From the NCBI GenBank assembly GCA_034722415.1, contig JAYENY010000001.1:1-53888 (forward strand): DNA of 53,888 nt, read 5' to 3'. Shown here piece by piece: positions 6,987 through 52,414 of this stretch. Under the pieces are notes generated by a model that had not been told where the DNA came from, did not search any database, and saw only the letters and a program-made list of their open reading frames with translations. This stretch comes from Patescibacteria group bacterium. Its GTDB lineage: Bacteria; Patescibacteriota; Minisyncoccia; Minisyncoccales; PEYH01. Both the position numbers and the translations under genes were made by a program. Each line of letters opens with the position of its first letter. Position 1 is the stretch's first letter.

Positions 6987-6993
6987 AATTAAT

Positions 6994-21722: not shown

Positions 21723-21732
21723 TTGCTGTTTA

Positions 21733-22257
21733 TTATTTTTCAAAAATCGCGGACCAGTGATAGGTATCGGCCTCAAGTTTTTTAACTAATTTCATATCTA
21801 AATTGAGCCGCATTAATTTCTCAATTTCGTCTAAGGATACTCTTCCCTCCTCGGGTCCAAATGGTGAATCTACTTTCCAGTCAACAACTATTATTTTCCC
21901 ATTTACGTTAAGAATTCTTTTCGCTTCCCTAAGTATTTCTTCTCTTTTGGTTGATTGAAATAAAATATTAGTTACCAAAACTAAGTCTAACACACCATCC
22001 CTAAGGGTAGATCCTTTTGGTTCCTCTAAGTCACATTGAATTGTTTTTATATTAGACAACCCCTCTACTTTAGCTTTGCCAAGTAGTGCTGAAAGAGGCT
22101 CTTCTTGAATATCTAAGGCATAAACCATGCCTTTGGGTAAAACTCGTGCCAATTCAATTGTAAATCCGCCTTGTCCACATCCAAACTCAGCAGCATTCCA
22201 ATCCTGCTTTATTCCAAGTTGCTCAATAATTTTTTCTGGATCAAGAAAAGTCACCAT
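21733..22257 (-). CDS. Class I SAM-dependent methyltransferase
   Basis: 174 aa. Motif [16 protein letters not shown] and an acidic loop ALDI. Confidence 0.75.
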
Positions 22258-30771: not shown

Positions 30772-30778
30772 CTTCGTG

Positions 30779-30850
30779 AGCGGGAGACGGGATTTGAACC
30801 CGCGATCTTCTCGTTGGCAACGAGACGCTCTACCACTAAGCTACTCCCGC
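30779..30850 (-). tRNA. tRNA-Gly(GCC)
   Basis: Acceptor GCGGGAG/CTCCCGC, U73, anticodon stem TCTCG/CGAGA with loop TTGCCAA. Confidence 0.85.
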
Positions 30851-30907
30851 ACTAAATTTCTATAATGGACAAGAACACATTAAATATCCTAATGTATTTT
30901 TTTAATG

Positions 30908-30979
30908 TGCCGCGGGTCAGAATTGAACTGACGACCCTTTCTTTTTCAGAGAAATGCTCTACCACTGAGCTACCGCGGC
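30908..30979 (-). tRNA. tRNA-Phe(GAA)
   Basis: Acceptor GCCGCGG/CCGCGGC, anticodon stem TTTCT/AGAAA with loop CTGAAAA. Confidence 0.85.
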
Positions 30980-30980
30980 G

Positions 30981-31057
30981 TGGTGGGCGCGACAGGATTT
31001 GAACCTGTGACCTCCGCAATGTCAATGCGACACTCTAACCAACTGAGCTACGCGCCC
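30981..31057 (-). tRNA. tRNA-Val(GAC), CCA encoded
   Basis: Acceptor GGGCGCG/CGCGCCC, then ACCA. Anticodon stem TCGCA/TGCGG with loop TTGACAT. Confidence 0.85.
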
Positions 31058-31060
31058 ATG

Positions 31061-31144
31061 TGCCCGGGGTGGGATTCGAACCCACATGGCCTTGCGGCCA
31101 CAACATTTTAAGTGTTGCATGTAAACCAGTTCCATCACCCGGGC
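31061..31144 (-). tRNA. tRNA-Leu(UAA)
   Basis: Acceptor GCCCGGG/CCCGGGC, anticodon stem CAACA/TGTTG with loop CTTAAAA, long variable arm. Confidence 0.8.
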
Positions 31145-31151
31145 GAATCCT

Positions 31152-31223
31152 AGGCGCGGATGGGAGTTGCACCCATGTATATCGGTTTTGCAGACCGATG
31201 CCTTGCTACTTGGCTACCGCGCC
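31152..31223 (-). tRNA. tRNA-Cys(GCA)
   Basis: Acceptor GGCGCGG/CCGCGCC, U73, anticodon stem TCGGT/ACCGA with loop CTGCAAA. The T-loop TGCAACT is atypical. Confidence 0.8.
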
Positions 31224-35466: not shown

Positions 35467-35482
35467 ATAAGTATTTTAATTG

Positions 35483-35556
35483 TGGACCCAGCGAGATTCG
35501 AACTCGCGACCTTCTCTATGCCATAGAGACGCGCTGGCCAACTGCGCTATGGGCCC
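35483..35556 (-). tRNA. tRNA-Ala(GGC)
   Basis: Acceptor GGGCCCA/TGGGTCC with the G3:U70 Ala identity pair. Anticodon loop ATGGCAT. Confidence 0.85.
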
Positions 35557-35565
35557 GCTTGCTGA

Positions 35566-35638
35566 TGCCCCCACCAGGACTCGAACCTGGATCTATTCCT
35601 TAGGAGGGAATCGTTCTATCCTGTTGAACTACAGGGGC
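35566..35638 (-). tRNA. tRNA-Arg(CCU)
   Basis: Anticodon stem ATTCC/GGAAT with loop CTCCTAA. The acceptor stem has two G:U pairs. Confidence 0.8.
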
Positions 35639-35702
35639 GAATCTTGATTTAGATTATCATTTTTATAGCGAGAAAACAAGATTTCATCAAAAACCTTTCA
35701 TC

Positions 35703-35725
35703 AAAAACCCTTGCTAAAGCAAGGG
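35703..35725 (-). terminator. Rho-independent terminator after tRNA-His
   Basis: cccttgc-taaa-gcaaggg. On the minus strand the stem is followed by TTTTT. Confidence 0.6.
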
Positions 35726-35740
35726 CTTCTGGAAAGATTG

Positions 35741-35814
35741 GGTGACCGAAGGGGCTCGAACCCTCAACCTTCTCGACCACAACGAGAAGCTCTACCAATT
35801 GAGCTACGGCCACC
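35741..35814 (-). tRNA. tRNA-His(GUG) with encoded G-1
   Basis: An extra 5' G opposite C73. Anticodon stem TCTCG/CGAGA with loop TTGTGGT. Confidence 0.85.
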
Positions 35815-35892
35815 ATAAAATTGTTTTAGGACTGTGTAAACACGCGGATAAATAGAACCCCCTCTGCCACTTACCATGCCTCAATCAATATA

Positions 35893-35966
35893 TGCCCCCA
35901 CCAGGGCTCGAACCTGGAGTCTACTCCTTAGAAGGGAGTCGCGTTATCCAATTGCGCTATGGGGGC
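35893..35966 (-). tRNA. tRNA-Arg(UCU)
   Basis: Acceptor GCCCCCA/TGGGGGC, anticodon stem ACTCC/GGAGT with loop CTTCTAA. Confidence 0.85.
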
Positions 35967-36052: not shown

Positions 36053-36355
36053 TTATTCTTGATAAAAAGGGTTAGCATAAGTTTTAAAATCCGCCTCAAA
36101 AAACTTCTGTTTTCGCTGAGCATAATTACTTAGAAAATTTTGATAAAGCTTTTCGTCCAATTCTATCATCTTCACTACTGTTATTGGCTCTTTAGTAACA
36201 ACTAAAAAACCATAATAATAAAAAATGGCGCCTCCTATAAGTAGCATTAAAGAAACAAAAATAATAAAGCTTACAAAAGCCTTTTCTCCCAAAAACCAAA
36301 CTATTTTCTGGGAAATTTTTTTAATTTTTTGAAAATTAATTTTAACTTTGGACAT
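36053..36355 (-). CDS. Small single-pass membrane protein at the end of pilus locus 2 (PilP-like position, C-terminal NPF)
   Basis: 100 aa with a TM (FVSFIIFVSLMLLIGGAIFYYYGFLVV) and a C-terminal YANPFYQE. 14-nt overlap with the PilO-like gene. Confidence 0.45.
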   Translation of the reverse strand: MSKVKINFQKIKKISQKIVWFLGEKAFVSFIIFVSLMLLIGGAIFYYYGFLVVTKEPITVVKMIELDEKLYQNFLSNYAQRKQKFFEADFKTYANPFYQE

Positions 36356-36920
36356 AAGCCTTGATTAAAAGATTAATTTCGACATAATCGCCATCAGCAA
36401 TTGTTTCTTTTCCAGATTCATATTTAAAATCTTCTTCTCGATTAATATTTATACTAATTTCTTCTATTAACCATCTGCCATTCTCTAATTTTTCAAGGAA
36501 TCTCATTATATCAACAAATCTCCCTGTTCCTTCAATTCTAAAATTCATATAATCCCAAAATTCACTTTTCTTTTCGTGAAATCCCATGGGAGAAATTTTT
36601 AAGGCTAAATTAAAATCTGAGGCCTGTTCTTTAAAAAAATTAATAAAACTAATTGGAATCTCTGGATCAATAAGCGATTCTTTTTCTAAAAGATTTTCCA
36701 TTTCCTCTAATCCTTGTTCGTAGGAAAGGAAATTCTTCTCAAAATCATCAAAATTTTGACTTAATAATTCAACAGAGGCTAACTCTTCTCTCCGAGAAGC
36801 TAGTTCATCGGAAGTTTCTATAATACTTCTCAGCGTGGGCATAATACAAAACATAAGCAATGAGAAAAAAACAATTACTATAATAAAAATTGAGAGATAA
36901 TCTTTTTGTTTAAAATTCAT
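36342..36920 (-). CDS. PilO-like protein (locus 2)
   Basis: 192 aa with an N-terminal TM, a coiled coil and GTGRFVDIMRFLEKLENGRWLIEEISI. Confidence 0.6.
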   Translation of the reverse strand: MNFKQKDYLSIFIIVIVFFSLLMFCIMPTLRSIIETSDELASRREELASVELLSQNFDDFEKNFLSYEQGLEEMENLLEKESLIDPEIPISFINFFKEQASDFNLALKISPMGFHEKKSEFWDYMNFRIEGTGRFVDIMRFLEKLENGRWLIEEISININREEDFKYESGKETIADGDYVEINLLIKAYVQS

Positions 36921-37444
36921 TTTTCTAAATTAAAGCTCACTCTAAAATTTACGCCTTTTTGTTGTAGCCAATCTGGAATAACAAAATTAGTTTCTTTAAA
37001 GTCTTCCTGTTCTCTTAATGTCTGCCTGAAATTATTAGCTGAATCTATATCTAGAGCGTATCCAGTAAAAACAACTTGCGAACCTCTTGTTTGATAAGAA
37101 AAATTTTCTAAATAAACGCTTGATTCAACCAATAAAGAAAATTCCTCTACAAAAGCAGACAGAGAAAATTGATTTTCGTAAAAATCATTAAGTTCTGATA
37201 AAGAATTATTAACTGAGTTTATCTTTTTTTGAAGGACTTGAACTTGAAAATTTTTTTCTCTTTCTACTTCAATCGAAGCCTCTTGAAATACTATCTCATC
37301 AGCAATGTAAAATTTAATAGAGAGCAAAATTAAACCAAAAGATAACGTAGAGGCTATAATTAAAATCCCTAAAATCCAAATAAGTTTTAAGATTTTTTCT
37401 TGAACTCTTTTTTCTTTTTCGATTGGAGGAAGTAAGCTTATCAT
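36917..37444 (-). CDS. PilN-like protein (locus 2)
   Basis: 175 aa. The N-terminal MISLLPP matches the conserved PilN INLLP-type PilM-binding motif. A TM and a coiled coil follow. Confidence 0.65.
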   Translation of the reverse strand: MISLLPPIEKEKRVQEKILKLIWILGILIIASTLSFGLILLSIKFYIADEIVFQEASIEVEREKNFQVQVLQKKINSVNNSLSELNDFYENQFSLSAFVEEFSLLVESSVYLENFSYQTRGSQVVFTGYALDIDSANNFRQTLREQEDFKETNFVIPDWLQQKGVNFRVSFNLEK

Positions 37445-37498
37445 AATTTATTTTATCTTATGCTCTCTTTATCAATAAAGAGGGGACATAAAAAATGA

Positions 37499-38581
37499 TT
37501 ACAAAACATCTCCTAAGGCTAAGCCTATTGCCGTAGTATAAGATAATAGTTTTTTTCTTTTTAACAAATTCTTAATCTCTTTATCTTCTATTGGTAGATT
37601 AATTAAGGGATTACCCTTTTGCACAATTAATCCTGTTTCTTGTGATAAAAACTTCGTCAACCCGCGCAAGTTGGCTCCGCCACCACAAATAACAATATTC
37701 TTAGTTTCTTTGCCGTTGTTTAAGAATTTTTCATGCTTAGCATGAATTCCATAATAATCAATATGCTTTTTTATCTCCCAACTAAATTCAGTTAAAATAG
37801 GTAGCATTATTTTGAAAAGTTTTTTGGCTCTAGCTCCTGTCTGCTGAAAACCATACGAAGTTTTTAGTTTTTCCGCCTTAGATTTTTTTATTTTCATATC
37901 TTCAGCAATAGCGATGTTTAATTTATTCGAAGAAAATGGAATAAAAGAAGTAAATCGCATAGAGTCCCGGAAATAAACACTAAAATTACTGCAAGTTGCA
38001 CCTATGTCGATTATAAAGATTGGTTTTTTTGTTTTCTGCCCCTTAATCAAAGCTCTAACTGTTGCCTGAGACTCTGTTTCCATGCTAGTTGGAATAAGTC
38101 CTGCCCTATAAATAGCAGAGACATAAGAATCTACTGTTTTCTTAGATAGCGCAGCTAATAAAACTTCTACATGGTTTAAGGAATTATCTGATCGTTTAAT
38201 TATTTGAGAATCAAGATAAACTTTTTCTACGCTAAAGGGAATATAATTCTCTGCTTCAAAGCAAACAGCGCCTTTTATTTCCTCATCGCTCATTTTTGGC
38301 ATCTCAATCAAACTTACAAACGTTTTTTCTTCAGGCAAGGAAACCACAACATGTTTTGTGTCTAATCCGGGAGTTTTATCAACTAACCGCTGAATAGCTT
38401 CTGCTAGTTTTTTTTCATTTTTTATTTCTCCATGCTCAATCACTCCCGCAGGCAACGAAATCTCGTTCATAGCTCCGATTCGTAATTGATTCTTTTGCTT
38501 CTTAATTTTAATGACCTTCAAAGACATGTCAGAAATGTCTAACCCAAAGGTGCTTGGATTGAGATTAAGTAAATCAAACAT
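37499..38581 (-). CDS. pilM: PilM-like actin-fold protein (locus 2)
   Basis: 360 aa. FGLDISDMSLKVIKI, IDIGATCSNFSVY and CGGGANLRGL. Confidence 0.8.
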   Translation of the reverse strand: MFDLLNLNPSTFGLDISDMSLKVIKIKKQKNQLRIGAMNEISLPAGVIEHGEIKNEKKLAEAIQRLVDKTPGLDTKHVVVSLPEEKTFVSLIEMPKMSDEEIKGAVCFEAENYIPFSVEKVYLDSQIIKRSDNSLNHVEVLLAALSKKTVDSYVSAIYRAGLIPTSMETESQATVRALIKGQKTKKPIFIIDIGATCSNFSVYFRDSMRFTSFIPFSSNKLNIAIAEDMKIKKSKAEKLKTSYGFQQTGARAKKLFKIMLPILTEFSWEIKKHIDYYGIHAKHEKFLNNGKETKNIVICGGGANLRGLTKFLSQETGLIVQKGNPLINLPIEDKEIKNLLKRKKLLSYTTAIGLALGDVL

Positions 38582-38605
38582 TAATTAATAGATAATTATT
38601 ATTTA

Positions 38606-40075
38606 TTATTGAATTTCTTCCCATCCCCTATAACTAAACTCTTCGGAGATACATGGTAAAAACGGAGGAGGGTAGTACCCAAGTTCTGGGTTATAAAGAT
38701 TTTCTCTTTCCATGTAACCGCTAACCGGACTTCCTCCTGATGTCCATTGTGTCCCTACTCTACCATTGCTAACTATAGTACCATAAATATTTAATTCTTC
38801 CTTTTTTCCATACGAAGGATACCATGCCGCAGAATAATAATTAATACCAAATTTTCCTGTTTGCGCTATAAAAATTCCGTGAAGATCCATATATTGAGGA
38901 GAATCTGGGCTAATTAAAACATCTTGTTGGCTAATTAAGACAAATCCGTCTGCGTTACCTCCATATTTATACTCAATATTACCTTTTAGCCAGGCGTTTA
39001 CCTCTTCCTCTGGATTAATTAAATTAGCTACGGCCAAAGTCATTCTTCCGCCTATCTCTCCTTCAATCCAGACATTATCTTCTATGTATATAAGGCCACA
39101 ATCTTCTAGGATGTATTCAATCGCCGCGCCTTCTTCGCTAATAATTGAATATTCCCAATGATAACCTTCCTCTTCGGTATAAGCTCTAACTCTACTTAAT
39201 TCTGTAATCTTACTAACACTTAATGTTCTGTCGTCTATTATAACATGATAACCTTCCTCATCAGAAGGAGGGAAATAAAGACCTTTACCATCTCCCTCTG
39301 GTAATGGTTGAGTTAAGGATTTAATTCTGCCTAAATCAACTGTAATTCCTTCGAAATCAAAATGAGAAGATCCAATCCTAAAAAAATCTTGGTTCCCATT
39401 GGCTGTTGTAAAAACTCCTGGGCACACGCATTCCTCGCCAGGTATCCATTCACAGTCAGAAGGACAACTAGTACAGCCATAAGAATGAGTACAAACCCAT
39501 TCTTCTTGCTCTGACATTACTAAAGAATTATTAGTTGCATCCATTCTGATTCCTCCATTAGAGTGATATGGACCCATGATTATTCTATCCGCTCCCGCCC
39601 AAACATCGTGATTCAGAATATATGAATATTCAGCTACGCTAGGTTTAATATAACGTACCCTAATCTTTCTTCGAACATCTGGAAACTGAGGAGTCCAGCC
39701 GATAACGGTAACGCCCATTGCCACACTAACTCCGCAAGACCTATCTTCGTCTATCTCCAATTGATATTTTCCAACTACCCCTACCCCAGGTAAAGCTAAT
39801 TCATATTCACATTCAGCACAATCAGCACAATCAGATGGGGGACAACCAATTTCTTCTCCTCCAAAAATTTCTTGAGATTTTTGAATTAGATACCACTTAT
39901 ATCTATCAAGCCCAGATTCAGCTACATGAAGGGACTGTTCATAGGCAAGCTCATATTTCGCCTGTCTCAACTGTGAAAGAATAAAACTTAATAATCCAGC
40001 TAAAATCAATAAAAAAACAAAACCAAAAATCAAGATATAAGTAATAATAAAACCTTTGTTTTTATCTTTCTTCAT
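38606..40075 (-). CDS. Large PilX-like minor pilin (hydrophobic N-terminal helix without Glu5), Cys-rich
   Basis: 489 aa. KNKGFIITYILIFGFVFLLILAGLLSF followed by LRQAKYELAYEQSLHVAESGLD (PilX_N-like). Cys clusters include CPPSDCADCAEC and CTHSYGCTSCPSDCEWIPGEECVCPG. Confidence 0.65.
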   Translation of the reverse strand: MKKDKNKGFIITYILIFGFVFLLILAGLLSFILSQLRQAKYELAYEQSLHVAESGLDRYKWYLIQKSQEIFGGEEIGCPPSDCADCAECEYELALPGVGVVGKYQLEIDEDRSCGVSVAMGVTVIGWTPQFPDVRRKIRVRYIKPSVAEYSYILNHDVWAGADRIIMGPYHSNGGIRMDATNNSLVMSEQEEWVCTHSYGCTSCPSDCEWIPGEECVCPGVFTTANGNQDFFRIGSSHFDFEGITVDLGRIKSLTQPLPEGDGKGLYFPPSDEEGYHVIIDDRTLSVSKITELSRVRAYTEEEGYHWEYSIISEEGAAIEYILEDCGLIYIEDNVWIEGEIGGRMTLAVANLINPEEEVNAWLKGNIEYKYGGNADGFVLISQQDVLISPDSPQYMDLHGIFIAQTGKFGINYYSAAWYPSYGKKEELNIYGTIVSNGRVGTQWTSGGSPVSGYMERENLYNPELGYYPPPFLPCISEEFSYRGWEEIQ

Positions 40076-40079
40076 TTTT

Positions 40080-41081
40080 TTAATCTTCTCCCATCTTTAA
40101 ATTTCTTAACTGAACCTTGCTTTCTAGAGTATAATCTCCTGGGTCGTAATCTGGCTCCACATTAATAATTAAAGATACTTGCATTAAGCGAGTTTCCTCT
40201 GGTCTAGCGGGATATTCAATAATTTCTTCACCGTTTTCATCAAAATATCTAAAAACATACTTTTCGGGATCCGATAATTTATTTTGAACATAAACAGATA
40301 AAACTTCTACCTCTTCTTGATCGCTTAAATAAACTGGTGGGTCTTCTATTGGATTTATTACTCCTCTCTTAAATTCCATATCCTGCCCCGTAGTAGTTTC
40401 TGTCCAAGACAATATAAATTGTGCTTTCATTGAATGGCCTGGCTCCTGCCAATTGCAAAAATTATCCACTTTTTTAGATGCATCAGCAATAAATTGAAGA
40501 AAATTGTCTTGGGCTTGTTCTGTGACATCAAAAGAAATCGTTGACTGCCAGAAGCCAGAACAATCAGAGCATTCTCCCTGGCTGTCGCATAATTCTCCTA
40601 GACTAATACCGTCAACAAAAATTTCTGAGAATTCCCGTACCCAGCCAAAGTCTCCCTCAATACTAATTTGAACTTGAGCCTGCTCTAATATTCCTTCATA
40701 AAAATCCGAAAAAACAACAGAACACGAACCGCCAGTAATATTGCTAACACAATCTTCGGTTTCTTCTTTATTAGAAACTCCTCCTAAAAAATAGCGTACT
40801 CTTTCTATATCTCCATCATTATCAATGTCGCTGAAAAAAATAAATTCGCTATCTTCCGCTTTTTCAATAATATACGAGCCATCTCCTCCTGCTCGCGCCT
40901 CTCTTATCTCTCTAACCATAACCTTAACCCCTCTTCTCGCCTCATCAATAGCGTATGCTTGATTCCATGCATAATTATTTGTTTTATAAAGAAAAGGAAT
41001 TAAACTAAATAGGGCGCCAGAAATCAGCCCAAAGATTGCGATGGCTACTAACATTTCAATTAATGTAAATCCTTTATTCAT
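40080..41081 (-). CDS. Minor pilin / pseudopilin (PilW/GspJ-like) with a Cys-rich insertion
   Basis: MNKGFTLIEMLVAIAIFGLISGALF prepilin motif. ERVRYFL beta-strand motif. 8-nt overlap with the upstream gene. Confidence 0.8.
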   Translation of the reverse strand: MNKGFTLIEMLVAIAIFGLISGALFSLIPFLYKTNNYAWNQAYAIDEARRGVKVMVREIREARAGGDGSYIIEKAEDSEFIFFSDIDNDGDIERVRYFLGGVSNKEETEDCVSNITGGSCSVVFSDFYEGILEQAQVQISIEGDFGWVREFSEIFVDGISLGELCDSQGECSDCSGFWQSTISFDVTEQAQDNFLQFIADASKKVDNFCNWQEPGHSMKAQFILSWTETTTGQDMEFKRGVINPIEDPPVYLSDQEEVEVLSVYVQNKLSDPEKYVFRYFDENGEEIIEYPARPEETRLMQVSLIINVEPDYDPGDYTLESKVQLRNLKMGED

Positions 41082-42876
41082 ACCTTTCTAATCCTACTGT
41101 TTTATAATCTTCTCCTGTGATACCAAAAGAATACGATTTATTATAATAATTATCTGCTTCAATGTTTAAACTATAATTTGGATTAGAGTCTAAGGGAATA
41201 AAGAGCGCCTCTCCTTCCATGTTTGTGCTATTAGCTTCCTCATACTCTAAGGGAGAATTAGAAAGAGAAACCATGGCTCCAAAAATTGGATCCGTACTAG
41301 AGGCATCTTGAACCTTAACTAATAAAGAGTTGTCTGATTCCAAATAAAGAACAACAGCAGTAGTTGTTCCCGAAGAAAGATTGTATGGCATTGGACTTAG
41401 CCCTTGATTAAGGTTTAATGATTGATCATCCTTGTTGAAATCAGAAAAATAATAATTATCTGTTTCCATTTCTAAAAATTCTTTTTCACCGCTTAAATTC
41501 GAGGAATAATTCCCATCATATTTATAAATCAGCTCTTCGCTTGCATCTGTTCCTACTATTTTATCTCCCCTTAAGTCAAAATTAACGCTAGCGATTGGAG
41601 TGGCTGAGCCATTTTTCCATGAAAGTTGCCAATCGTAAAGAGTTGGAGTTTTTTCTAAATTATTAGTCGAAAAACTTGTTTTAATCTTTAAGTTAGGAAA
41701 CTCTAATACATCTAAAGAAGATAAATCGATCGGAGAAGAATCAAATCCATTCTCGTTGCCAGGCAAATTACTATTTGGAATTAAATGCCAATCACTGCTA
41801 GTGCTATAAAAAAGCTGATAATTAATATCTGTTTGTAATTCTTCAAAGTCAGACCATTCTAATTCATACCATTGAGTTATTCCTGCTGGAATAATAGCGT
41901 CCGAAACTAGGTCCCCTGAAGGAAAATAAGTAACAGGAGAACTGGCTGCTAATGTAGCTTTTCCATCAGCAATTGTTAAATTATTAATTTCGGAAATCTT
42001 ATCTTGATTCAAAAAAGTATCTAAGAAACTACCTCCTCCCCACGAAAGGGAAGTACTTACTGTTAGATCGCTAGATTCATCCATAATAAAAGTAATGGGA
42101 TATACCTCTCCTTCTCTAATCGTGGGATTGTTTCTTGTTGGAGCAACAATAATCGAACCATTGTATTCCTCTCCTGACTTAAATGTTTGATCAATACCAT
42201 ACCCTTGCTTTTCAACAATAATCTTATAATCATTGGATGATTCAGAAGCGTCTAAAATTAAAAGTCTCGTCCCAATGCTTTGTAGATCAGTGCCATAACA
42301 CTGGTCTATGCCAAGAGTTTGATTAATAATGCGAATAGTATCATCTGGGCAGGGGGGCAACTGATCTCCAGTTTGAATCTCAATTGGTTGCCCCGAGCTG
42401 TTGCTTAAAGCAATACGCAAAGCACCCTTTCCCTCTCCCGTTTCTAACCCGTCAGAAGCAATATTTGTACTTAAAACAGTTTCTCCTCCAAAAAAATCAG
42501 CCCAAAGAATTCTAACTTTTATTTTTTTGTAATCATTAGGCGCTACATCTGGAGCGACAATTAATCCACCACAATCAAACCCGCTTATCGTACCATCAGC
42601 ACAGTCATCAAAATCCTCAACTAAAGTTTGAATATTATAAGAAACCCCATTTAGAATAATAGTATCTTCACTCGTCTCAATATTGCTAAAAGATAAATTT
42701 CTTAATTCTTCAATACTTTGGCTTGCTAAATATACGGCTCCCATTTTAGCCTTTGATTGCGCGACGACTTTGATTGCTAATCTAAAACCGCCCACGATTC
42801 CTATAAAAACAATTGAAATTAAAAAACACGCCACCAAAACTTCTATAAGTGTAAATGCTTTTTGTTTTCTTCTCAT
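41074..42876 (-). CDS. Giant minor pilin / pseudopilin (600 aa) with a C-terminal carboxypeptidase-regulatory-like beta-sandwich
   Basis: MRRKQKAFTLIEVLVACFLISIVFIGIV prepilin motif. C-terminal LLVKVQDASSTDPIFGAMVSLSN...EGEALFIPLDSNPNYSLNIEADNYY. Confidence 0.8.
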   Translation of the reverse strand: MRRKQKAFTLIEVLVACFLISIVFIGIVGGFRLAIKVVAQSKAKMGAVYLASQSIEELRNLSFSNIETSEDTIILNGVSYNIQTLVEDFDDCADGTISGFDCGGLIVAPDVAPNDYKKIKVRILWADFFGGETVLSTNIASDGLETGEGKGALRIALSNSSGQPIEIQTGDQLPPCPDDTIRIINQTLGIDQCYGTDLQSIGTRLLILDASESSNDYKIIVEKQGYGIDQTFKSGEEYNGSIIVAPTRNNPTIREGEVYPITFIMDESSDLTVSTSLSWGGGSFLDTFLNQDKISEINNLTIADGKATLAASSPVTYFPSGDLVSDAIIPAGITQWYELEWSDFEELQTDINYQLFYSTSSDWHLIPNSNLPGNENGFDSSPIDLSSLDVLEFPNLKIKTSFSTNNLEKTPTLYDWQLSWKNGSATPIASVNFDLRGDKIVGTDASEELIYKYDGNYSSNLSGEKEFLEMETDNYYFSDFNKDDQSLNLNQGLSPMPYNLSSGTTTAVVLYLESDNSLLVKVQDASSTDPIFGAMVSLSNSPLEYEEANSTNMEGEALFIPLDSNPNYSLNIEADNYYNKSYSFGITGEDYKTVGLERYE

Positions 42877-42923
42877 ATTCCTCCCGTAATCAGGTTTGTT
42901 AGATCCCTAGTTATTATTATTTT

Positions 42924-42932
42924 ATTCTAACA
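42924..42932 (-). promoter_or_regulatory. Extended -10 promoter candidate (TGtTAGAAT) for the minor-pilin/pilMNO unit
   Basis: Minus strand reads TGtTAGAAT (rc 42924-42932). An SD, GGGAGG, lies just upstream of the ATG at 42876. Confidence 0.4.
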
Positions 42933-42957
42933 AAAAAACGCCTAGTTGGCGATTTTT
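42932..42957 (-). terminator. Short terminator after the pilC-like gene
   Basis: Minus strand reads aaaaatCGCC-aacta-GGCGttttttt. The stem is only 4 GC pairs, with A/T extension and a T7 run. Confidence 0.4.
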
Positions 42958-42995
42958 ACGCTCTTGTATTTAATTCTTTTCGTGTCCTCTATTTC

Positions 42996-44231
42996 TTACA
43001 TCCCCTCCATTATCGAATACATAGGTTGAACCATAGCAATGGCAAAAAATCCAACCATTGATCCTATAACTATTAAAAGAACTGGCTCAATAATAGAAGA
43101 TAAATTTTGGGTCGCATTACTTACTTGTTCTTCGAAAAAATCAGCCAATTTAGTTAACATCTCTGATGTTTTTCCTGTTTCTTCCCCTATCTTTAACATT
43201 TGTAAAAAAAGTTGGGGATAAAGATCTGAGAATCCAGACATAGCAGCAGAAAGCTTCTTGCCTTTTTGGACTTCTTTTGCTGAATTTTTTAACGCTTCTT
43301 TGAAATAAATATTGTTTACTGCGCCAGACGAAATTTCAAGTGCAGATACTATCGGAACACCACCGTTTATCATAGCGCTTAAAGACAGGGAAGTGTAAGC
43401 ACAATTTATTTTCCTTATCAAGGTTGAAAGCACTGGAGTTCTTAAGAAAAATTTATCTAAAAACTTTTTGCCTGATTTAGTTCTAGATAAAACAATAATT
43501 AAGAATGGTATTCCAATTAAAAATATAATAACGATATACCAGTAAGAAACGAAAAATCCTCCAAGCGCAATCACAAATCTTGTCATGAGTGGCAAATCTA
43601 TTCCCAATTCTTGAAATGTTTGGCTTAATTGAGGAACAACTTTTACTAACATTACAATGCCAATTAAAATCATGGCTCCAATAATCACTGACGGATAAAC
43701 CATTGCACCCTTAACCTTAGCCCTTAACTTATAATTCCTCTCTAATTGAACTGCTAATATGCCTAAAATTTCTTCCATTTTACCAGTCTGTTCTCCAACT
43801 TTAATCATGCTAGAATAAATTTCAGGAAAAATCTTCGGGTATTTAGCTACTGCAACAGATAATGCTAAGCCCTTAACAATCTTTTCTTTTATTTCTAAAA
43901 GAACTTTTTTAAAATATTTATTCTTAGTTTGAAGAGCTAATACATCTAATGCTTTAGGCAAAGAAACCCCAGCCGAAATCATTACTTGCAAGTTCTTAGT
44001 CATCATTAACTTCTCGGTTAAAGACACTCTACGAAACGTTAGTGAGATATTTATTTCTTTTCCTCCTTTTTTCTTGTCTTTTGCTTTTCCTTTTTTCTTT
44101 GCTTCAGCTGAAATTAAAAAAAAGCCTTCCGACTTTAATAGGCGTGCTAATTTTGCTTTATTACTAGCTTCTTTTTGTCCTTTTTGCTTTTTACCTTCTA
44201 TTGATTTAGCAATGTAATTATAATTTGGCAT
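42996..44231 (-). CDS. PilC/GspF-family platform protein (locus 2)
   Basis: 411 aa with duplicated T2SSF domains and three TMs. A Lys-rich insertion lies near the N-terminus. Confidence 0.85.
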   Translation of the reverse strand: MPNYNYIAKSIEGKKQKGQKEASNKAKLARLLKSEGFFLISAEAKKKGKAKDKKKGGKEINISLTFRRVSLTEKLMMTKNLQVMISAGVSLPKALDVLALQTKNKYFKKVLLEIKEKIVKGLALSVAVAKYPKIFPEIYSSMIKVGEQTGKMEEILGILAVQLERNYKLRAKVKGAMVYPSVIIGAMILIGIVMLVKVVPQLSQTFQELGIDLPLMTRFVIALGGFFVSYWYIVIIFLIGIPFLIIVLSRTKSGKKFLDKFFLRTPVLSTLIRKINCAYTSLSLSAMINGGVPIVSALEISSGAVNNIYFKEALKNSAKEVQKGKKLSAAMSGFSDLYPQLFLQMLKIGEETGKTSEMLTKLADFFEEQVSNATQNLSSIIEPVLLIVIGSMVGFFAIAMVQPMYSIMEGM

Positions 44232-44242
44232 AAATCAAATAT

Positions 44243-45997
44243 TTATTCCATAATTACTCGAAGAATTTCCTCTAGAGTAGTAATTCCTTGAGCTGCCTTA
44301 ACAAAACCATCTTCTGCCATTGTTCTCATTCCTTCTTTAATTGCCCTTTCTTGAATTTGGCTAGAAAAAACTCCTTTATTAATCAATCTCTTTATGCTTT
44401 CTGTAATTGGCAAAACTTCATAAATTCCGCATCTTCCTTTGTAGCCCTTTGGACAGGTTTTGCTTTTTTTATGATTATAGAATTTTATATTAGAAAGATT
44501 TTGACTAGATTTAATAATCTTATCTTCTTTTAGCGCATTTAAAAAACGACTAGAGTCACAAGATTCAAATAATTCTTTTATTTTTTTAGCGCTTATCTTA
44601 TGTTCTTCTTTATCTTCGCAAAGTTTCCTTACTAAGCGCTGTGCTAAAACTAAATTTAATGTAGACGCGATTAAAAACGGTTCTATTTTCATATCTATAA
44701 GGCGAGGGATTGCACCAGCTGCACTATTTGTGTGTAGCGTAGACAAAACTAAATGCCCAGTAAGTGCTGCGTTAATTGCTAAGGAAGCGGTTTCACTATC
44801 TCTAATTTCTCCGACCATAATAACATCAGGGTCCTGCCTCAATAAAGAGCGAAGTCCATTCGCAAATGAAAGCCCAATTTTAGGCTTCACTTGAGTCTGG
44901 TTAACTCTTGGCATCTGATATTCAATAGGATCTTCTATTGTACAAATATTAACCTCTGGAACATTTAAAATTTCCAACATGGAATAAAGGGTGGTTGTTT
45001 TACCAGATCCAGTTGGGCCTGTAACTAAAATTAATCCAGTTGGTTTTTTGATTGCAGTTTCAATATATTCCAGCGCTTTTCCTCTTAACCCTAGTTCTTC
45101 TAAAGAATGTCCTTTTATCCCTTCTGCTAAAAGACGCATCACTATTTTTTCTCCATTCAAAACTGGTAACACAGATACCCTAACTGAATATCTCCCATTG
45201 CTAGTTTTAAATTTGAAGCGTCCATCTTGAGGTAAGCGATGTTCGTCTAGCTTAAGGTCTGCGAGAACTTTTATTCTGGCAACAACTCCTGGAGCAATCT
45301 GCTTAGGGAGAGTCATAGCATCTCTTAATATTCCATCAATTCTATAGCGAACTGTAACTTCTTTTTCTGATGGTTCAATATGAATATCTGACGATCTGTC
45401 TAAAACAGCATGTTGTAAAAGAGTTTCAACTATTCTAATGACCGGCATTTCTTGGGCTACTTGTTCTAAATTTTCTCCGTTTTTTTGCTTAGATTTTTTC
45501 TCTAAAAGTATCGGCTTTATATCCTTAGCCTCTTTTTTAATCAACTCCTTAAACTCTGCTTTTAGAGTTTTTCTGTATTGAGATAAAATATTCTTAATTC
45601 CTACAGGGGTAGTTAATCGTGGCAGAATCTTTAAATCTGATTTCTTTTTTATGAAATTAATAGTCTGAAGATCCTCTGGATCAAGCATTGCTACTTCTAA
45701 TTCCTTTTTTGTCTTTTTAAACGCAACAATATTGTGAGAGCGGGCGATTGGTTCAGGAATAATATCTAGAGCTTCCGGCGCAACAACTGTTTTCTCTAAA
45801 TTAACAAAAGGAATACCAAGAATATATGCTTTTAATCGGCTTAAATCTTCTTGAGAAATAAAATTATTAACAATCAAAACGTCTTCAACGTCTTCTTTGG
45901 ATTCTTTAGCAATTTTTTGTGCTTCAGCGAACTGTTCTTTAGTAAGAAGTTCTGCGTCCAATAAAAATGCCTTAAGTTGTTTGTTATCAACTTTCAT
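44243..45997 (-). CDS. PilB/GspE-family assembly ATPase (locus 2)
   Basis: 584 aa. T2SSE N-domain, GPTGSGKTT, IMVGEIRD and TLHTNSA. The Cys motif is degenerate (one Cys, then CPKGYKGRCG). Confidence 0.9.
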   Translation of the reverse strand: MKVDNKQLKAFLLDAELLTKEQFAEAQKIAKESKEDVEDVLIVNNFISQEDLSRLKAYILGIPFVNLEKTVVAPEALDIIPEPIARSHNIVAFKKTKKELEVAMLDPEDLQTINFIKKKSDLKILPRLTTPVGIKNILSQYRKTLKAEFKELIKKEAKDIKPILLEKKSKQKNGENLEQVAQEMPVIRIVETLLQHAVLDRSSDIHIEPSEKEVTVRYRIDGILRDAMTLPKQIAPGVVARIKVLADLKLDEHRLPQDGRFKFKTSNGRYSVRVSVLPVLNGEKIVMRLLAEGIKGHSLEELGLRGKALEYIETAIKKPTGLILVTGPTGSGKTTTLYSMLEILNVPEVNICTIEDPIEYQMPRVNQTQVKPKIGLSFANGLRSLLRQDPDVIMVGEIRDSETASLAINAALTGHLVLSTLHTNSAAGAIPRLIDMKIEPFLIASTLNLVLAQRLVRKLCEDKEEHKISAKKIKELFESCDSSRFLNALKEDKIIKSSQNLSNIKFYNHKKSKTCPKGYKGRCGIYEVLPITESIKRLINKGVFSSQIQERAIKEGMRTMAEDGFVKAAQGITTLEEILRVIME

Positions 45998-46021
45998 AAT
46001 TCAAAATAATAGTGAAATAAT

Positions 46022-46390
46022 TTAATCCTCTAATGTTTTTCTTACTTTCTCTATCACCTCATCTAAGCTATAGTTCGCTTTTATCAGATAGGTTGTAGCT
46101 CCGAGTTCAATTGCTTTCTCCACCTCTCCTACGTTCTCCAAGTTAGTAAGAATTATAACTGGGATATCTTTTGTTTTCTCTTCTGCTCGTAATCCCTCTA
46201 AAACCTCTATCCCATTTTTCTTTGGGAGGATGATGTCTAAAAGTATTAGGTCAGGATTTCCGCTCTTAGCTAATTTTAATCCCATTTCTCCGTCAATAGC
46301 TGACTCAACTTCATACCCTTTGTTGCGAAGAGATTCTCCTAGAGTTTTTTGAATAGCTGCTTCGTCTTCAACAAATAAAATCTTTTTCAT
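46022..46390 (-). CDS. Single-domain response regulator (receiver only)
   Basis: 122 aa. KILFVEDE, DIILPKKNG and TYLIKA. Confidence 0.85.
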   Translation of the reverse strand: MKKILFVEDEAAIQKTLGESLRNKGYEVESAIDGEMGLKLAKSGNPDLILLDIILPKKNGIEVLEGLRAEEKTKDIPVIILTNLENVGEVEKAIELGATTYLIKANYSLDEVIEKVRKTLED

Positions 46391-46413
46391 AATAAATAAT
46401 TAATGATTAATAA

Positions 46414-47358
46414 TTATGCGGTTGGTAATGTAAAATAAAATGTGCTTCCTTTGTCTTTTTTGGAATTAAACCAAATTTTACCATTCATTCCATCAAGAAT
46501 TAATTTAATGATATAAAGACCTAGACCAGTCCCATAGACTTCTGCTCTAACAGCATTCTTTGCACGAAAAAACTTCTGAAAAATTCGCTTTTGATCTTCA
46601 GCTGGAATACCTATGCCTTCATCTTTTATTTCAAATCTTATCCCTTTGTTGAATGCTTTTAATATAATAGATATCTTTTCTCCTTCTTGGCTATAGCGAA
46701 TGGCATTATTAATCAAGTTTTCTACTACTATTTTAATAAGCGGATAGCTAGCCACAACATAAGATAATTTTTCAGGTGCTTTTAAATCTAGTTTAATCTT
46801 AGAATTTTTAACAGCTTTCTCATGCTCTGCAATAATTTCTTCTGTTAATGCTGTTAAAGAAAATTTCGTCTTTTTATTATCTGTTTTTCCTTCCTTTAAT
46901 CGAGTAATTGTAAGTAAATCATCAATTAATCCCTCCATACGGGCACCATTTTGCTTGATAATATCAAAATACTCGATGTTTTGATCTTTGTTGGCAACCG
47001 TAAACTCCTCAGATAGCAAAAATTGAGTTGCCCATCTCAAATTAGTTAGGGGAGCTCTTAATTGATGGGATACAATACTAACAAACTCTGCCTTCATTCT
47101 ATTCGCTTCAGCTAAATCTTCAAAACTATGAGTTATAATAAAAGCGATGATTAAAAAGATCATCGCAACTGCAAGGACAACAAAGGCCACTATTCTTGGA
47201 TCTGTCACGTAATTTTCTCCTATAGCATAAAAAACAGAACTAGAAATCATAATCACGAAGCCCATCACAACAAAAAGAAATTGAGGACATTGCCGAAGAG
47301 GAACATTATATTTCCTGCATTGAGAAAAAATATTAAGTTGGGAAAGTTTTTCACTCAT
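46414..47358 (-). CDS. Sensor histidine kinase with two TMs and almost no extracytoplasmic loop
   Basis: H-box FVSIVSHQLRAPLT, N-box NLINNAIRYS and G-boxes DEGIGI / GTGLGL. I prefer the ATG at 47358 (MSEKLSQ). The track start at 47421 is a GTG inside a terminator hairpin. Confidence 0.85.
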   Translation of the reverse strand: MSEKLSQLNIFSQCRKYNVPLRQCPQFLFVVMGFVIMISSSVFYAIGENYVTDPRIVAFVVLAVAMIFLIIAFIITHSFEDLAEANRMKAEFVSIVSHQLRAPLTNLRWATQFLLSEEFTVANKDQNIEYFDIIKQNGARMEGLIDDLLTITRLKEGKTDNKKTKFSLTALTEEIIAEHEKAVKNSKIKLDLKAPEKLSYVVASYPLIKIVVENLINNAIRYSQEGEKISIILKAFNKGIRFEIKDEGIGIPAEDQKRIFQKFFRAKNAVRAEVYGTGLGLYIIKLILDGMNGKIWFNSKKDKGSTFYFTLPTA

Positions 47359-47387
47359 AGGCTTATCCTTAATTTTAATATTATCTA

Positions 47388-47396
47388 ATTCTAACA
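47388..47396 (-). promoter_or_regulatory. Extended -10 promoter candidate (TGtTAGAAT) for the kinase-receiver-pilB-pilC unit
   Basis: Minus strand reads TGtTAGAAT, about 30 nt upstream of the ATG at 47358. Confidence 0.4.
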
Positions 47397-47403
47397 CATT
47401 TAG

Positions 47404-47436
47404 AAAAAAGCAAAAGTCCACTAATTAACAGTGGAC
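47404..47436 (-). terminator. Rho-independent terminator of the GC-rich membrane-protein gene
   Basis: gtccac-9 nt-gtggac. On the minus strand it is followed by TTTTGCTTTTTT. Confidence 0.6.
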
Positions 47437-47462: not shown

Positions 47463-47879
47463 TCATATATTCCCCTCATTCTCATAAGTCGCGTGTACAT
47501 CTCTGTCTCGTAAAGATTTGAGAGCCATTCTCGCCGAGCAAAAAATCATACAAACAGGCAAGAAAGAGATAGGCCAGCTATAAATGGATCCGGCAGCGAT
47601 TCGAGAAACGTCAGCCCATGTTGGAGGAAAGGATCTCATAAAAACAAACGCCCAACCCCATCTTGCTATCCAGACCCATAGAAACATGCTCCCAATCCAG
47701 ATCAGCGTTTCTGAACTATCTGATCGATTCTCTTGTCCTATCTCCATTCTCTGTTTTTCTGCCAGTATTTTCTTTCTGTCATAAAAAAACATGGCTCCTA
47801 TCATGAACAGACAGATCAAAAACGGAACCCCTAGCTTGGGATGCTGAGCTAGCCATCCTAAATTAGCCAAATATTTCAT
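47463..47879 (-). CDS. Hypothetical polytopic membrane protein, GC-rich relative to surroundings
   Basis: 138 aa with about 4 hydrophobic segments and many Trp residues. An SD, GGAGGT, lies upstream. I recognise no family. Confidence 0.6.
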   Translation of the reverse strand: MKYLANLGWLAQHPKLGVPFLICLFMIGAMFFYDRKKILAEKQRMEIGQENRSDSSETLIWIGSMFLWVWIARWGWAFVFMRSFPPTWADVSRIAAGSIYSWPISFLPVCMIFCSARMALKSLRDRDVHATYENEGNI

Positions 47880-48015: not shown

Positions 48016-48087
48016 CGGGGCATAGTGCAATTGGTAGCACGAGTCCTTTGGGAGGATTTAGTCCCAGTTCGAGTCTGGGTGCCCCGA
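48016..48087 (+). tRNA. tRNA-Pro(UGG)
   Basis: Acceptor CGGGGCA/TGCCCCG, anticodon loop TTTGGGA, T-arm CCCAG-TTCGAGT-CTGGG. Confidence 0.85.
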
Positions 48088-48109
48088 CATTGAGATAAAA
48101 ATATAATAA

Positions 48110-48180
48110 GCGGGGGTAGTTCAACGGTAGAACCTCAGATTTCCAATCTGATAATGCGGGTTCGATTCCCGTCTCCCGCT
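48110..48180 (+). tRNA. tRNA-Gly(UCC)
   Basis: Acceptor GCGGGGG/CTCCCGC, U73, anticodon stem TCAGA/TCTGA with loop TTTCCAA. Confidence 0.85.
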
Positions 48181-48191
48181 CAAAAACTAAA

Positions 48192-51649: not shown

Positions 51650-51985
51650 TCAATTTAATTTTAACTCAAAACCGGTTCTCTTAATCTCGTTAAGAAAGGC
51701 GCTGCTTGTTGCAAAATCTTCCTCTGTAAATCCTACTGGCTCTAATCCAGCCATCACTTCCTCTCTTTTTCTCTTGGTGAGCAAAAATTCTACGGCTTTT
51801 AATGCGTTCTTAAATTTAGGAGAAATAATACAGACATCTATGTCTGACCAAGTATGTGTTTTCCCCGTAGCTTGAGAGCCAAAAATCATTACTCTCTTTA
51901 TTGGTAATTTTTCTTCTTCTGACAAGCGTTGAGTATAATTCCTCACTATTTTAGCTACTTTTTTTGAAACTCTTTTTTTAGCCAT
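51650..51985 (-). CDS. Minimal nucleotidyltransferase (MNT) domain protein, putative antitoxin
   Basis: 111 aa. The pol-beta NTase motif is FGSQATGKTHTWSDIDV (GS...DxD). Confidence 0.75.
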   Translation of the reverse strand: MAKKRVSKKVAKIVRNYTQRLSEEEKLPIKRVMIFGSQATGKTHTWSDIDVCIISPKFKNALKAVEFLLTKRKREEVMAGLEPVGFTEEDFATSSAFLNEIKRTGFELKLN

Positions 51986-52368
51986 AAAAGTAAATTTTTG
52001 GTAATCTCTAAATATTCTGCGGCTACCGCTTTATTATTATATTTTTGATAAAATTCAAACTTCTCTTCAGAATACCGACCAGCAATATTAAAAGTAAAAA
52101 TTTTATCTAAAGCCATTTGTTGCTCTTTGGTTAAATTCACTCCAGCCAATTCTGCCAATCTTCGCAAATCGTGGACAAAAGGAGCAAATTCCTTGGTTTT
52201 CTTTATAAATAGGGCTTTGAGTATTTTCTCCAAGCTTAAATGACAGAAAAACAACGATTGAGGGTAAAGTCCTTTCTCAAACAAAATTTTCGCTGCCTTA
52301 AAATCGTTGAAGGAACTCTCTCTCCAATATTTTATGCTTTTTTGAAGATAATTGGAATCTATCTTCAT
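51955..52368 (-). CDS. HEPN-domain protein, putative toxin partner of MNT
   Basis: All-helical, with HDLRRLAELAG and AGRYSEE segments typical of MNT-associated HEPN proteins. 31-nt overlap with the MNT gene. I prefer the ATG at 52368 over the TTG at 52392, which lies inside the duplicated clpP fragment. Confidence 0.65.
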   Translation of the reverse strand: MKIDSNYLQKSIKYWRESSFNDFKAAKILFEKGLYPQSLFFCHLSLEKILKALFIKKTKEFAPFVHDLRRLAELAGVNLTKEQQMALDKIFTFNIAGRYSEEKFEFYQKYNNKAVAAEYLEITKNLLLWLKKEFQKK

Positions 52369-52372
52369 GGAT

Positions 52373-52414
52373 TTAATTATAAATTTTTTCAATAACTGTA
52401 GGAATTAAATTCAT
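52373..52414 (-). pseudogene. Relic copy of the clpP 5' end ([10 protein letters not shown] then IYN*), direct repeat copy B
   Basis: 52385..52414 is identical to 50807..50836. Its ATG overlaps the NUDIX stop codon as ATGA. Confidence 0.85.

Follow-up and report, generated by a model that had tools for sequence, protein, structure and literature searches.

The DNA considered here is a contig of 53,888 nucleotides (nt) from a metagenome-assembled genome (MAG) of Patescibacteria, the candidate phyla radiation (CPR), with a GC content of about 35%; the whole of it is called the window, and the genome is known here from these 54 kb. In addition to a conventional type IV pilus locus at its beginning (locus 1), the window carries on the minus strand, at positions 36053-47421, a further set of pilus genes (locus 2). 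Locus 2 is a genuine operon, the second for type IV pilus assembly in the window, and not a quirk of one contig. It belongs to the type IVa class, in the form found in monoderms, and is not a type II secretion system (T2SS), a Com, a Tad or a type IVb system. We consider it probable that its products form a separate machine, with a tip complex of three large minor pilins, parts supplied in trans and gating by a two-component system.

Locus 2 consists of 11 open reading frames (ORFs) that lie nearly back to back, the widest gap being 119 nt (Table 1). In order they encode a histidine kinase, a receiver-only response regulator (RR2), the ATPase PilB2, the platform PilC2, three pilin-like proteins of 600, 333 and 489 amino acids (aa), PilM2, PilN2, PilO2 and a membrane protein of 100 aa. 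Identities were assigned by profile scans with Pfam and NCBIfam, BLASTP between paralogues, fold searches and profile-profile comparison, and every gene call made for locus 2 in a preliminary description of this DNA was upheld by them. PilM2 scored 182 bits with TIGR01175 of NCBIfam, over the cut-off of 133, and the ISLLPP at the N-terminus of PilN2 is a motif of the INLLP type. PilO2 was recognised by its similarity to PilO1 of locus 1 (27% identity, E 3e-8 by BLASTP), and its orthologue in one related locus (L003) gave a weak match to PF04350. The 489-aa, 192-aa (PilO2) and 100-aa proteins had no match in Pfam or NCBIfam; the last of these is the positional counterpart of a 107-aa protein that follows PilO1 in locus 1. 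The true start of the kinase is probably the ATG at 47358, which gives a protein of 314 aa, and not the GTG at 47421, because its orthologues are 315-317 aa long and a terminator-like hairpin (47436-47416) overlaps the GTG.

That locus 2 is without a major pilin, PilT, PilD or secretin, as had been stated in the preliminary description, was borne out by motif and Pfam scans. Two six-frame scans for the class III signal motif found no further prepilin ORF in locus 2, and a tiny hidden pilin ORF was rejected as a candidate because these scans showed none. By motif the whole window holds four prepilin ORFs, namely those of the 600-aa and 333-aa proteins in locus 2 and those of two small pilins in locus 1. 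No Peptidase_A24, secretin, ComEA, ComEC or second PilT was found in Pfam scans of the other large ORFs of the window, and there was no secretin of the GspD type, GspC or GspG either in locus 2 or among the other ORFs scanned. A pilT, pilin or secretin gene mis-called directly outside locus 2, a risk recognised at the outset, was looked for and none is there.

The operon is conserved in relatives. In a collection of 5.8 billion proteins at least 1197 homologues of the 489-aa protein were found, a lower bound, of which the best 120 share 43-100% identity with it. Where organism names are given these are Patescibacteria, Candidatus Nealsonbacteria or 'bacterium'. With a pattern scan (one genome per GTDB species) relatives of the protein were found in 393 species-representative genomes. 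Linkage was counted in 80 of these 393 stretches, each count taking in only those loci with enough flanking DNA; some counts were made over 84 loci. The individually named genomes that carry the operon are of the Parcubacteria group (Nealsonbacteria, Niyogibacteria, Wildermuthbacteria, Campbellbacteria and Paceibacter), and many of the bulk MAG titles read 'uncultured Candidatus Saccharibacteria bacterium', a label that was treated as unverified. When the proteins of the window were mapped on the ORFs of these relatives it was always the locus 2 paralogue, and never that of locus 1, that matched.

The genes of the relatives stand in a fixed order, (RNase Y)-kinase-receiver-PilB2-PilC2-600-333-489-PilM2-PilN2-PilO2-100. 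The kinase and receiver genes lie directly upstream of PilB2 in 40 of 41 loci, which agrees with the earlier claim that locus 2 is coupled to a kinase and receiver of its own. PilC2 and the 600-aa and 333-aa genes precede the 489-aa gene in 62 of 63 loci, PilM2 with PilN2 or PilO2 follows it in 49 of 59, and the 100-aa protein was seen at the end of the operon in 49 of 80 genome loci; in 29 loci the full set of 11 genes is collinear. Kept in dozens of independent genomes, the gene order is more than chance, and the survey of related genomes that had been proposed has thus recovered the same 11-gene order in MAGs of the Parcubacteria group. A small prepilin ORF lies within 10 kb in only about two of 84 related loci, and neither locus 2 nor any of the related operons has a PilT. 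The family is thus consistently without a major pilin, PilD or PilT in cis. Median identity across the relatives is 62% for RR2, second in the operon to PilB2 alone, 49% for PilC2, 42% for PilM2 and about 30% for PilN2 and PilO2, and stands at 51%, 45% and 36% for the 333-aa, 489-aa and 600-aa proteins respectively. In four of the related loci (L018, L021, L023 and L034) the operon ends after the 489-aa gene and a UvrD-type helicase comes next, which in L023 contains an intein; L020 has a similar ORF arrangement, judged by pattern alone.

The class of the motor and platform was judged from score comparisons with PDB sequences and NCBIfam models. The best PDB sequence matches of both PilB2 and PilB1, the ATPase of locus 1, are the type IVa PilB proteins of M. 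xanthus and Geobacter, over their full length; Thermus PilF and GspE are matched less well by both, and BfpD far less (120 bits for BfpD as against about 400 for PilB in the comparison with PilB2). With NCBIfam, PilB2 scored 544 bits on the PilB model and 537 bits on that of GspE, both under cut-off, and PilC2 matched the GspF and PilC models below cut-off, with the best score on GspF. Assignment to the T2SS by these GspE and GspF scores was rejected as uninformative, because PilB1 and PilC1 of locus 1 score the same and the scores do not discriminate. T2SS membership was rejected also on gene content, the secretin GspD, GspC and GspG being absent. Nor is locus 2 a Com (ComG) system, since PilM, PilN and PilO are present, the ATPase is a full-length PilB-like one and the scores on the ComGA and ComGB models were 260 and 152 bits for cut-offs of 300 and 240. 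The Tad or type IVc and the type IVb systems were rejected on a TadA-family score of 51 bits against a cut-off of 373, the low BfpD score and the single platform protein of the PilC type. Control of PilB2 by cyclic di-GMP through its MshEN domain was likewise considered and dropped, as the key Arg, Gly and Gln residues of the motif are missing by eye; the NCBIfam motif model gave 22.5 bits for a cut-off of 38. Identity between the proteins of the two loci is 40% for PilB, 31% for PilC and 27% for PilM, as it is for PilO, and PilB2 is barely closer to its own paralogue (417 bits) than to PilB of M. xanthus (406 bits). Judged by these comparisons, the two sets of machinery are old paralogues.

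A PilB-class ATPase with a PilC-class platform, and a sub-complex of PilM, PilN and PilO, were both found in locus 2 and are the marks of a monoderm type IVa pilus. Such pili have been described as built from PilB, PilC, PilD and PilM/N/O together with three minor pilins and a single major one, PilP and the secretin being absent (PMC6916266), and as monoderm type IVa machines are without the latter two, neither is expected here. The earlier statement that PilMNO normally works with PilP and PilQ holds for diderms only. Like the systems of S. sanguinis and Clostridia, locus 2 combines a PilB-type ATPase, PilC and PilM/N/O with the lack of PilP and a secretin, and has three minor pilins, some of which in those systems are large and modular; the large 'modular' minor pilins of S. 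sanguinis bear adhesive modules (10.1101/2021.01.27.428410). It differs from them in that their major pilin or pilins, PilD and PilT are encoded in cis, whereas for locus 2 all three would be supplied in trans, in the kinase and CheY-like receiver that are fixed in its operon, and in its minor pilins, which belong to the V-W-X core classes and bear a solenoid or a stalk of Ig-like (immunoglobulin-like) domains, whereas the modules of the monoderm pilins are von Willebrand factor A domains or lectins.

The three large proteins were placed by predicted fold and by profile. The AlphaFold2 model of the 489-aa protein, made from an alignment of 16 sequences (mean predicted local distance difference test score, pLDDT, 78.5), has a 64-residue N-terminal helix (2-65), a small pilin sheet and a long beta-rich body with a large beta-solenoid. 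The N-terminus, KG/FIITY (a slash marks the cleavage position), leads into a hydrophobic helix and has neither a canonical prepilin motif nor Glu5, which is missing throughout the family. The sole significant fold match in the PDB was ComZ of Thermus thermophilus (6qvi; E 3e-8, probability 1.0 by Foldseek), and the next was the ice-binding DUF3494 solenoid; sequence identity to ComZ is 10-12%, the likeness being one of fold only. ComZ has a GspK-like pilin fold with an inserted beta-solenoid, the nearest relative of which is an ice-binding protein, and it has been argued to be located at the pilus tip (PMC6561018). The same solenoid is found in cyanobacterial PilX, the proposed tip plug of FimT-PilW-PilV-PilX priming complexes (bioRxiv 10.64898/2026.02.12.705559). 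Some members of the 489-aa family, P0383 (916 aa), P0346 (866 aa) and P0396 (865 aa), have extra N- or C-terminal regions, and may be fusions with a neighbouring pilin or carry added modules.

The model of the 600-aa protein (pLDDT 86.8) has a pilin head in addition to its N-terminal helix, and some four beta-sandwich domains of Ig-like or CnaB type, which Foldseek matched to adhesins and sortase pilins of Gram-positive bacteria (B. anthracis TIE, BcpA, SdrD and SpaD, E 1e-11 to 1e-5). Its prepilin N-terminus reads QKA/FTLIE; among more distant orthologues the residue before the cleavage site is mostly Gly, in a few Ser or Leu, and many have Asp for Glu5. The class of all three proteins was judged against the set of four small minor pilins encoded behind PilD at locus 1 of relatives, the weak, sub-threshold matches of which follow the canonical order GspH, PilV-GspI, GspJ, PilX. 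In hhalign comparisons the 600-aa protein scored 99 with the PilV-like pilin over the whole 135-column pilin domain and at most 58 with the others, and the 489-aa protein scored 48 over 126 columns with the PilX-like pilin and at most 39 with the next. The 333-aa protein has an N-terminal GspJ match below the NCBIfam cut-off, which lends weak support to a PilW/GspJ class, and its family profile matched only the generic pilin N-terminal helix among PDB sequences. On their predicted folds and profiles, then, the 489-aa protein is a solenoid-bearing PilX-like pilin and the 600-aa protein a PilV-like one with an Ig-like stalk, and the 333-aa protein is tentatively assigned to the PilW/GspJ class. 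As far as sequence comparison goes, the trio reads as a V-W-X tip complex, equivalent to GspI-J-K, made of enlarged core minor pilins and without a member of the GspH/FimU (FimT/GspH) class. All three proteins are strongly acidic (D+E versus K+R 87/37, 62/26 and 71/36) and rich in invariant cysteines; the 333-aa family has six of them and the 489-aa family about nine, and CxxC-type spacings occur in both of these families. The cysteines suggest that the extracellular portions have disulfide knots or bind metal.

ComZ with PilA2 in Thermus and PilX in cyanobacteria provide the nearest parallels to the 489-aa protein. All are of the PilX/GspK class, lack Glu5 and have a large solenoid like that of ice-binding proteins, and all are encoded beside minor pilins of the PilV and PilW classes and are proposed tip caps or primers. 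Thermus and cyanobacteria are, however, diderms with one shared machinery, whereas here the priming set is joined to a motor, platform and PilMNO of its own; the set of locus 2 differs further in having no FimT/GspH-class member, in its strongly acidic proteins and in its low identity to ComZ.

By hydropathy the kinase is anchored by two transmembrane (TM) helices, with some 10 aa looping out between them; it is without an extracytoplasmic sensor domain, and may sense something in or at the membrane. The likely phospho-acceptor Asp of RR2 lies within LILLDI. RR2 shares 37.5% identity with RR1, the receiver of locus 1, which has no kinase. It has been shown in Synechocystis that the PixL kinase phosphorylates two CheY-like regulators and that phospho-PixG binds the motor PilB1 (PMC11181946). 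By analogy, the kinase of locus 2 would phosphorylate the CheY-like RR2, and possibly RR1, and since RR2 has no output domain it would act directly on PilB2, switching extension on or off. As RR1 is found at locus 1 without a kinase, a single kinase may coordinate both machines.

Locus 1 is the conventional locus it had been described as, with its second pilin cut by the start of the window. In three related stretches (L085-L087) the second PilA of locus 1 is followed by PilD (Peptidase_A24) and then by the four small minor pilins. PilD is therefore expected just past the window start here, since in these relatives it stands directly behind the two PilA genes, and locus 1, by its content in relatives, would be a conventional system that is complete and has a priming set of its own. 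We infer that locus 2 must borrow its prepilin peptidase and its fibre subunit; for the latter the tandem pair of PilA genes is the natural candidate. As the only PilT is at locus 1, retraction of the second machine would be either absent or shared, and the non-retractile filament suggested earlier stays a conjecture, a PilT gene lying some 33 kb away in the window. A ComFC-like gene (8150-8836, plus strand), with a double zinc ribbon and a phosphoribosyltransferase domain, lies divergently from PilM1, and RecG (9983-12115, plus strand) is close to it. ComFC adjoins PilM1 divergently, with RecG near, in L085-L087 also; these genes of DNA uptake and recombination are linked with locus 1 and not with locus 2.

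The closest published analogue of this arrangement is the second pilus, T4P-2, of the saccharibacterium TM7x, the locus of which encodes a second PilB/C/M/N/O set without PilT, has its major pilin elsewhere and serves host binding (PMC11623550). TM7x and Southlakia, with its T4P2, are CPR bacteria with two PilB/C/M/N/O sets, as here (PMC11623550; PMC10633639); in TM7x as in locus 2 the second set has no PilT, and the major pilin of TM7x is, as would be that of locus 2, in another locus; the second set of those bacteria is implicated in host binding. The likeness is one of locus composition, and there are differences. The second locus of TM7x holds RecA/RecX and one small pilin, with a kinase and receiver unreported, whereas locus 2 has no RecA, RecX or small pilin; and the minor pilins of TM7x are in a third locus, with a beta-propeller in PilX2, whereas here the trio is inside the operon and the PilX-class protein has a solenoid. 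The earlier view that this combination fits no textbook layout was therefore overstated, given the monoderm type IVa pili (PMC6916266) and the TM7x precedent (PMC11623550). A well-described clade with a canonical locus of exactly this content was looked for and not found. In the literature we found general statements on type IV pili and com genes in CPR bacteria, and none on this operon, its giant trio or its two-component coupling.

For the assembly of the tip, the pilin that is polymerised, the interaction of RR2 with PilB2 and adhesion, sequence, predicted folds and synteny together point to the following model. PilB2, PilC2, PilM2N2O2 and the 100-aa protein would form a membrane complex apart from that of locus 1. 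The V-W-X trio would be the first to assemble in the membrane and, having primed polymerisation, would remain at the tip of the filament, where the PilX/ComZ-like beta-solenoid would form the cap and the PilV-like subunit would project an Ig-like stalk of about four domains. The major pilin and the prepilin peptidase would be supplied in trans, most likely by locus 1. It had been suggested earlier that locus 2 could make a priming complex which draws on pilins from other loci, and that this would suit a cell with no outer membrane; this is close to the evidence, given the V, W and X classes of the trio and the place of PilA and PilD in locus 1 of relatives. Labour would be divided, with locus 2 acting in attachment and locus 1 being the one equipped with PilT and linked to ComFC and RecG. 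As to function, tip-mediated attachment to a conserved surface ligand, in contact with a host or a substrate, is put forward tentatively, with somewhat less than even confidence.

Several observations weigh against this model. About one in six related loci has no PilM2N2O2 after the 489-aa gene, and the machine may therefore not always be self-sufficient. By median identity, conservation of the three tip proteins is close to that of the machinery, which would suit a universal ligand or a purely structural role, since host-specific adhesins would be expected to diverge faster. Ala, and not Gly, precedes the predicted cleavage site of the 600-aa protein here and in L005 and L015. The class of the 333-aa protein is ambiguous, with hhalign scores of 77.7 for the PilW-like and 72.9 for the PilV-like pilin (its own N-terminus has the canonical motif, Table 1), and the labels of the small locus 1 pilins used as reference come from gene order and weak sub-threshold matches. 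Finally, TM-scores of the fold matches to ComZ and to the adhesins are low (0.13-0.32), because the domains are oriented differently.

The conservation of the tip bears also on the idea that locus 2 is a competence pilus, in which the 489-aa protein and its partners would be a tip receptor for DNA that is then imported through ComEC into a cell unable to make nucleotides. A universal ligand such as DNA would account for the high conservation of the tip proteins, the only significant match of the 489-aa protein among solved structures is a competence pilin, ComZ (PMC6561018), and Com genes and type IV pili are widespread in CPR bacteria, for which DNA scavenging has been proposed (PMC10633639). 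The solenoid PilX is found, however, in both the Com and the motility/exopolysaccharide priming sets of cyanobacteria (bioRxiv 10.64898/2026.02.12.705559), synteny links ComFC and RecG to locus 1, where PilT is found too, and locus 2 is without a retraction ATPase; there is no ComEA or ComEC among the scanned ORFs of the window. The strong acidity of all three tip proteins, with a net charge of about -35 for the 489-aa protein, argues weakly against DNA binding as well. A competence role, the main rival to attachment, is on this balance unlikely. Attachment is preferred over DNA uptake, because ComFC, RecG and PilT go with locus 1 and the tip proteins are acidic, and because a solenoid PilX occurs in pili other than those of competence and the PilT-less pilus of TM7x binds its host.

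A T2SS-like pseudopilus of a monoderm cell, a short piston capped by GspI-J-K that pushes folded proteins through the wall, would explain the I-J-K-type trio in its canonical order, the near-equal scores of PilB2 on the GspE and PilB models and the best score of PilC2 on GspF. Locus 2 has no PilT, and the T2SS is without a retraction ATPase. The T2SS shares with locus 2 the ATPase and platform superfamily also, but locus 2 has no secretin, GspC or GspG, its PilM, PilN and PilO are separate proteins as in type IVa pili, and its ATPase aligns over the full length with type IVa PilB, which the PDB matches favour. PilB1 and PilC1 of locus 1 moreover give the same GspE and GspF scores, a GspG-type pseudopilin, GspC or candidate substrate gene was linked in none of 84 loci, and an Ig stalk and a solenoid suit a surface-exposed tip better than a piston. 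The same hypothesis has been raised for the second type IV pilus set of Clostridium perfringens, a monoderm (PMC11580942); for locus 2 we regard it as very unlikely. Equally low is the standing of the view that locus 2 is not independent, being an alternative priming set with spare motor parts for the apparatus of locus 1. Cyanobacteria and Thermus do build two filament types with one machinery (bioRxiv 10.64898/2026.02.12.705559; PMC11623550), a sub-clade of the related loci is without PilM2N2O2, and it is locus 1 that has the major pilins, PilD and PilT. Against it, a full and ancient duplicate of PilB/C/M/N/O and the small membrane protein, at 27-40% identity, is kept with the trio in most genomes, and its retention in reduced genomes is hard to explain unless it forms its own complex; TM7x has two physically distinct filaments, one dependent on PilB2 (PMC11623550). 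A further reading, improbable though slightly less so than these two, is that there is no major pilin at all and that the V-W-X trio is the whole extracellular structure, a short, kinase-gated, non-retractile stub across the thin CPR wall that would act as a host contact or docking device or as a secretion piston. If true, this would be a class of type IV filament built from 'minor' subunits alone. The separate machine with a primed tip and a trans-supplied fibre remains the preferred reading.

Table 1. Features of the two type IV pilus loci in the window, with the evidence or remark for each
Feature	Position	Strand	Evidence or remark
Histidine kinase	46414-47421	minus	Pfam HisKA and HATPase_c
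RR2, receiver-only (CheY-like) regulator, 122 aa	46022-46390	minus	Pfam Response_reg only
PilB2, full-length type IVa extension ATPase	44243-45997	minus	T2SSE (E 1.7e-126) and N-terminal MshEN
PilC2 platform	42996-44231	minus	T2SSF, two copies
Intergenic gap, 119 nt	42877-42995	minus	weak hairpin CGCC-AACTA-GGCG then T7, plus TGTTAGAAT
600-aa modular minor pilin, PilV class	41074-42876	minus	N_methyl; AlphaFold2 fold; hhalign
333-aa minor pilin, tentative PilW/GspJ class	40080-41081	minus	N_methyl; canonical KG/FTLIE motif
489-aa PilX/ComZ-type tip pilin (predicted)	38606-40075	minus	AlphaFold2 fold; Foldseek; hhalign
PilM2, actin-like cytoplasmic ring protein	37499-38581	minus	PilM_2 E 2e-51; TIGR01175
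PilN2	36917-37444	minus	Pfam PilN E 5.6e-7; N-terminus MISLLPP
PilO2, 192 aa	36342-36920	minus	BLASTP to PilO1
100-aa single-pass membrane protein, last in operon	36053-36355	minus	one TM segment (hydropathy)
Locus 1	1-8052	minus	Pfam, motif scans, translation
PilM1	6994-8052	minus	locus 1
PilN1	6447-6986	minus	locus 1
PilO1	5917-6450	minus	locus 1
107-aa protein	5582-5905	minus	locus 1
PilB1	3724-5454	minus	locus 1
RR1, receiver-only regulator	3339-3701	minus	locus 1
PilT	2251-3336	minus	locus 1; sole PilT found in the window, ~33 kb from locus 2
PilC1	1034-2248	minus	locus 1
PilA	448-930	minus	locus 1
Second PilA	~434 to window start, truncated	minus	locus 1

Within the operon, a terminator and a TGtTAGAAT promoter had been proposed in the gap between PilC2 and the 600-aa gene (42877-42995). 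The letters are present, and the proposal has neither statistical nor conservation support: the hairpin is of just 4 base pairs, promoter-like sites number 51 in total as against 43.8 expected from shuffled sequence, which is no enrichment, and in L001 and L003 the gap is missing, the two genes abutting or lying no more than 20 nt apart. An internal promoter or terminator at this place was accordingly dropped, being at chance level and not conserved in L001 and L003. Locus 2 is flanked on both sides by tRNA genes (35482-35966 and 48016-48181). The window has 20 tRNA genes, an unusually high density for 54 kb, with two tight clusters at 30778-31223 and 35482-35966, the second of which directly bounds one end of locus 2; an Rfam scan found tRNAs only. 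Between the tRNA genes and the kinase lies an ORF for a 138-aa membrane protein (47463-47879, minus strand). The best promoter-like site of the region (47957-47929) is upstream of this ORF and a hairpin follows it; none of the 84 related loci has a counterpart.

Elsewhere in the window, an ORF on the plus strand (17212-19209) encodes a 665-aa membrane protein with a Wzy_C (O-antigen ligase) domain and tetratricopeptide repeats. Since pilin O-oligosaccharyltransferases too have Wzy_C as their catalytic domain, the 665-aa protein could be a pilin glycosylase. In a group of minus-strand ORFs (19436-19789, 20008-20583, 20588-20935 and 20952-21776) three match T4SS_pilin (PF18895), two of them at or below the Pfam cut-off, and a DUF4215 protein adjoins. 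They could belong to the type IV secretion system with pilins reported from Patescibacteria (PMC12102498; PMC10633639). An overlapping NTP_transf_2 and HEPN pair (51650-51985 and 51955-52392, minus strand) has the usual form of an MNT/HEPN toxin-antitoxin system.

The Parcubacteria/Paceibacteria rank with the most abundant of uncultured bacteria. For the step in which they find a host and hold on to it the operon is a compact, sharply defined and widely conserved candidate, with a dedicated motor, an unusually large and conserved tip and, beside the motor gene, a minimal switch from kinase to CheY-like receiver. It opens to study how a minimal cell shares out work between two pilus machines, the possible direct gating of PilB by CheY-like proteins and the ligand of the solenoid PilX cap. 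The finding also means that dual type IV pilus machines in CPR bacteria reach beyond the oral Saccharibacteria, and, as the second system is built differently here, it may have arisen or been remodelled independently.

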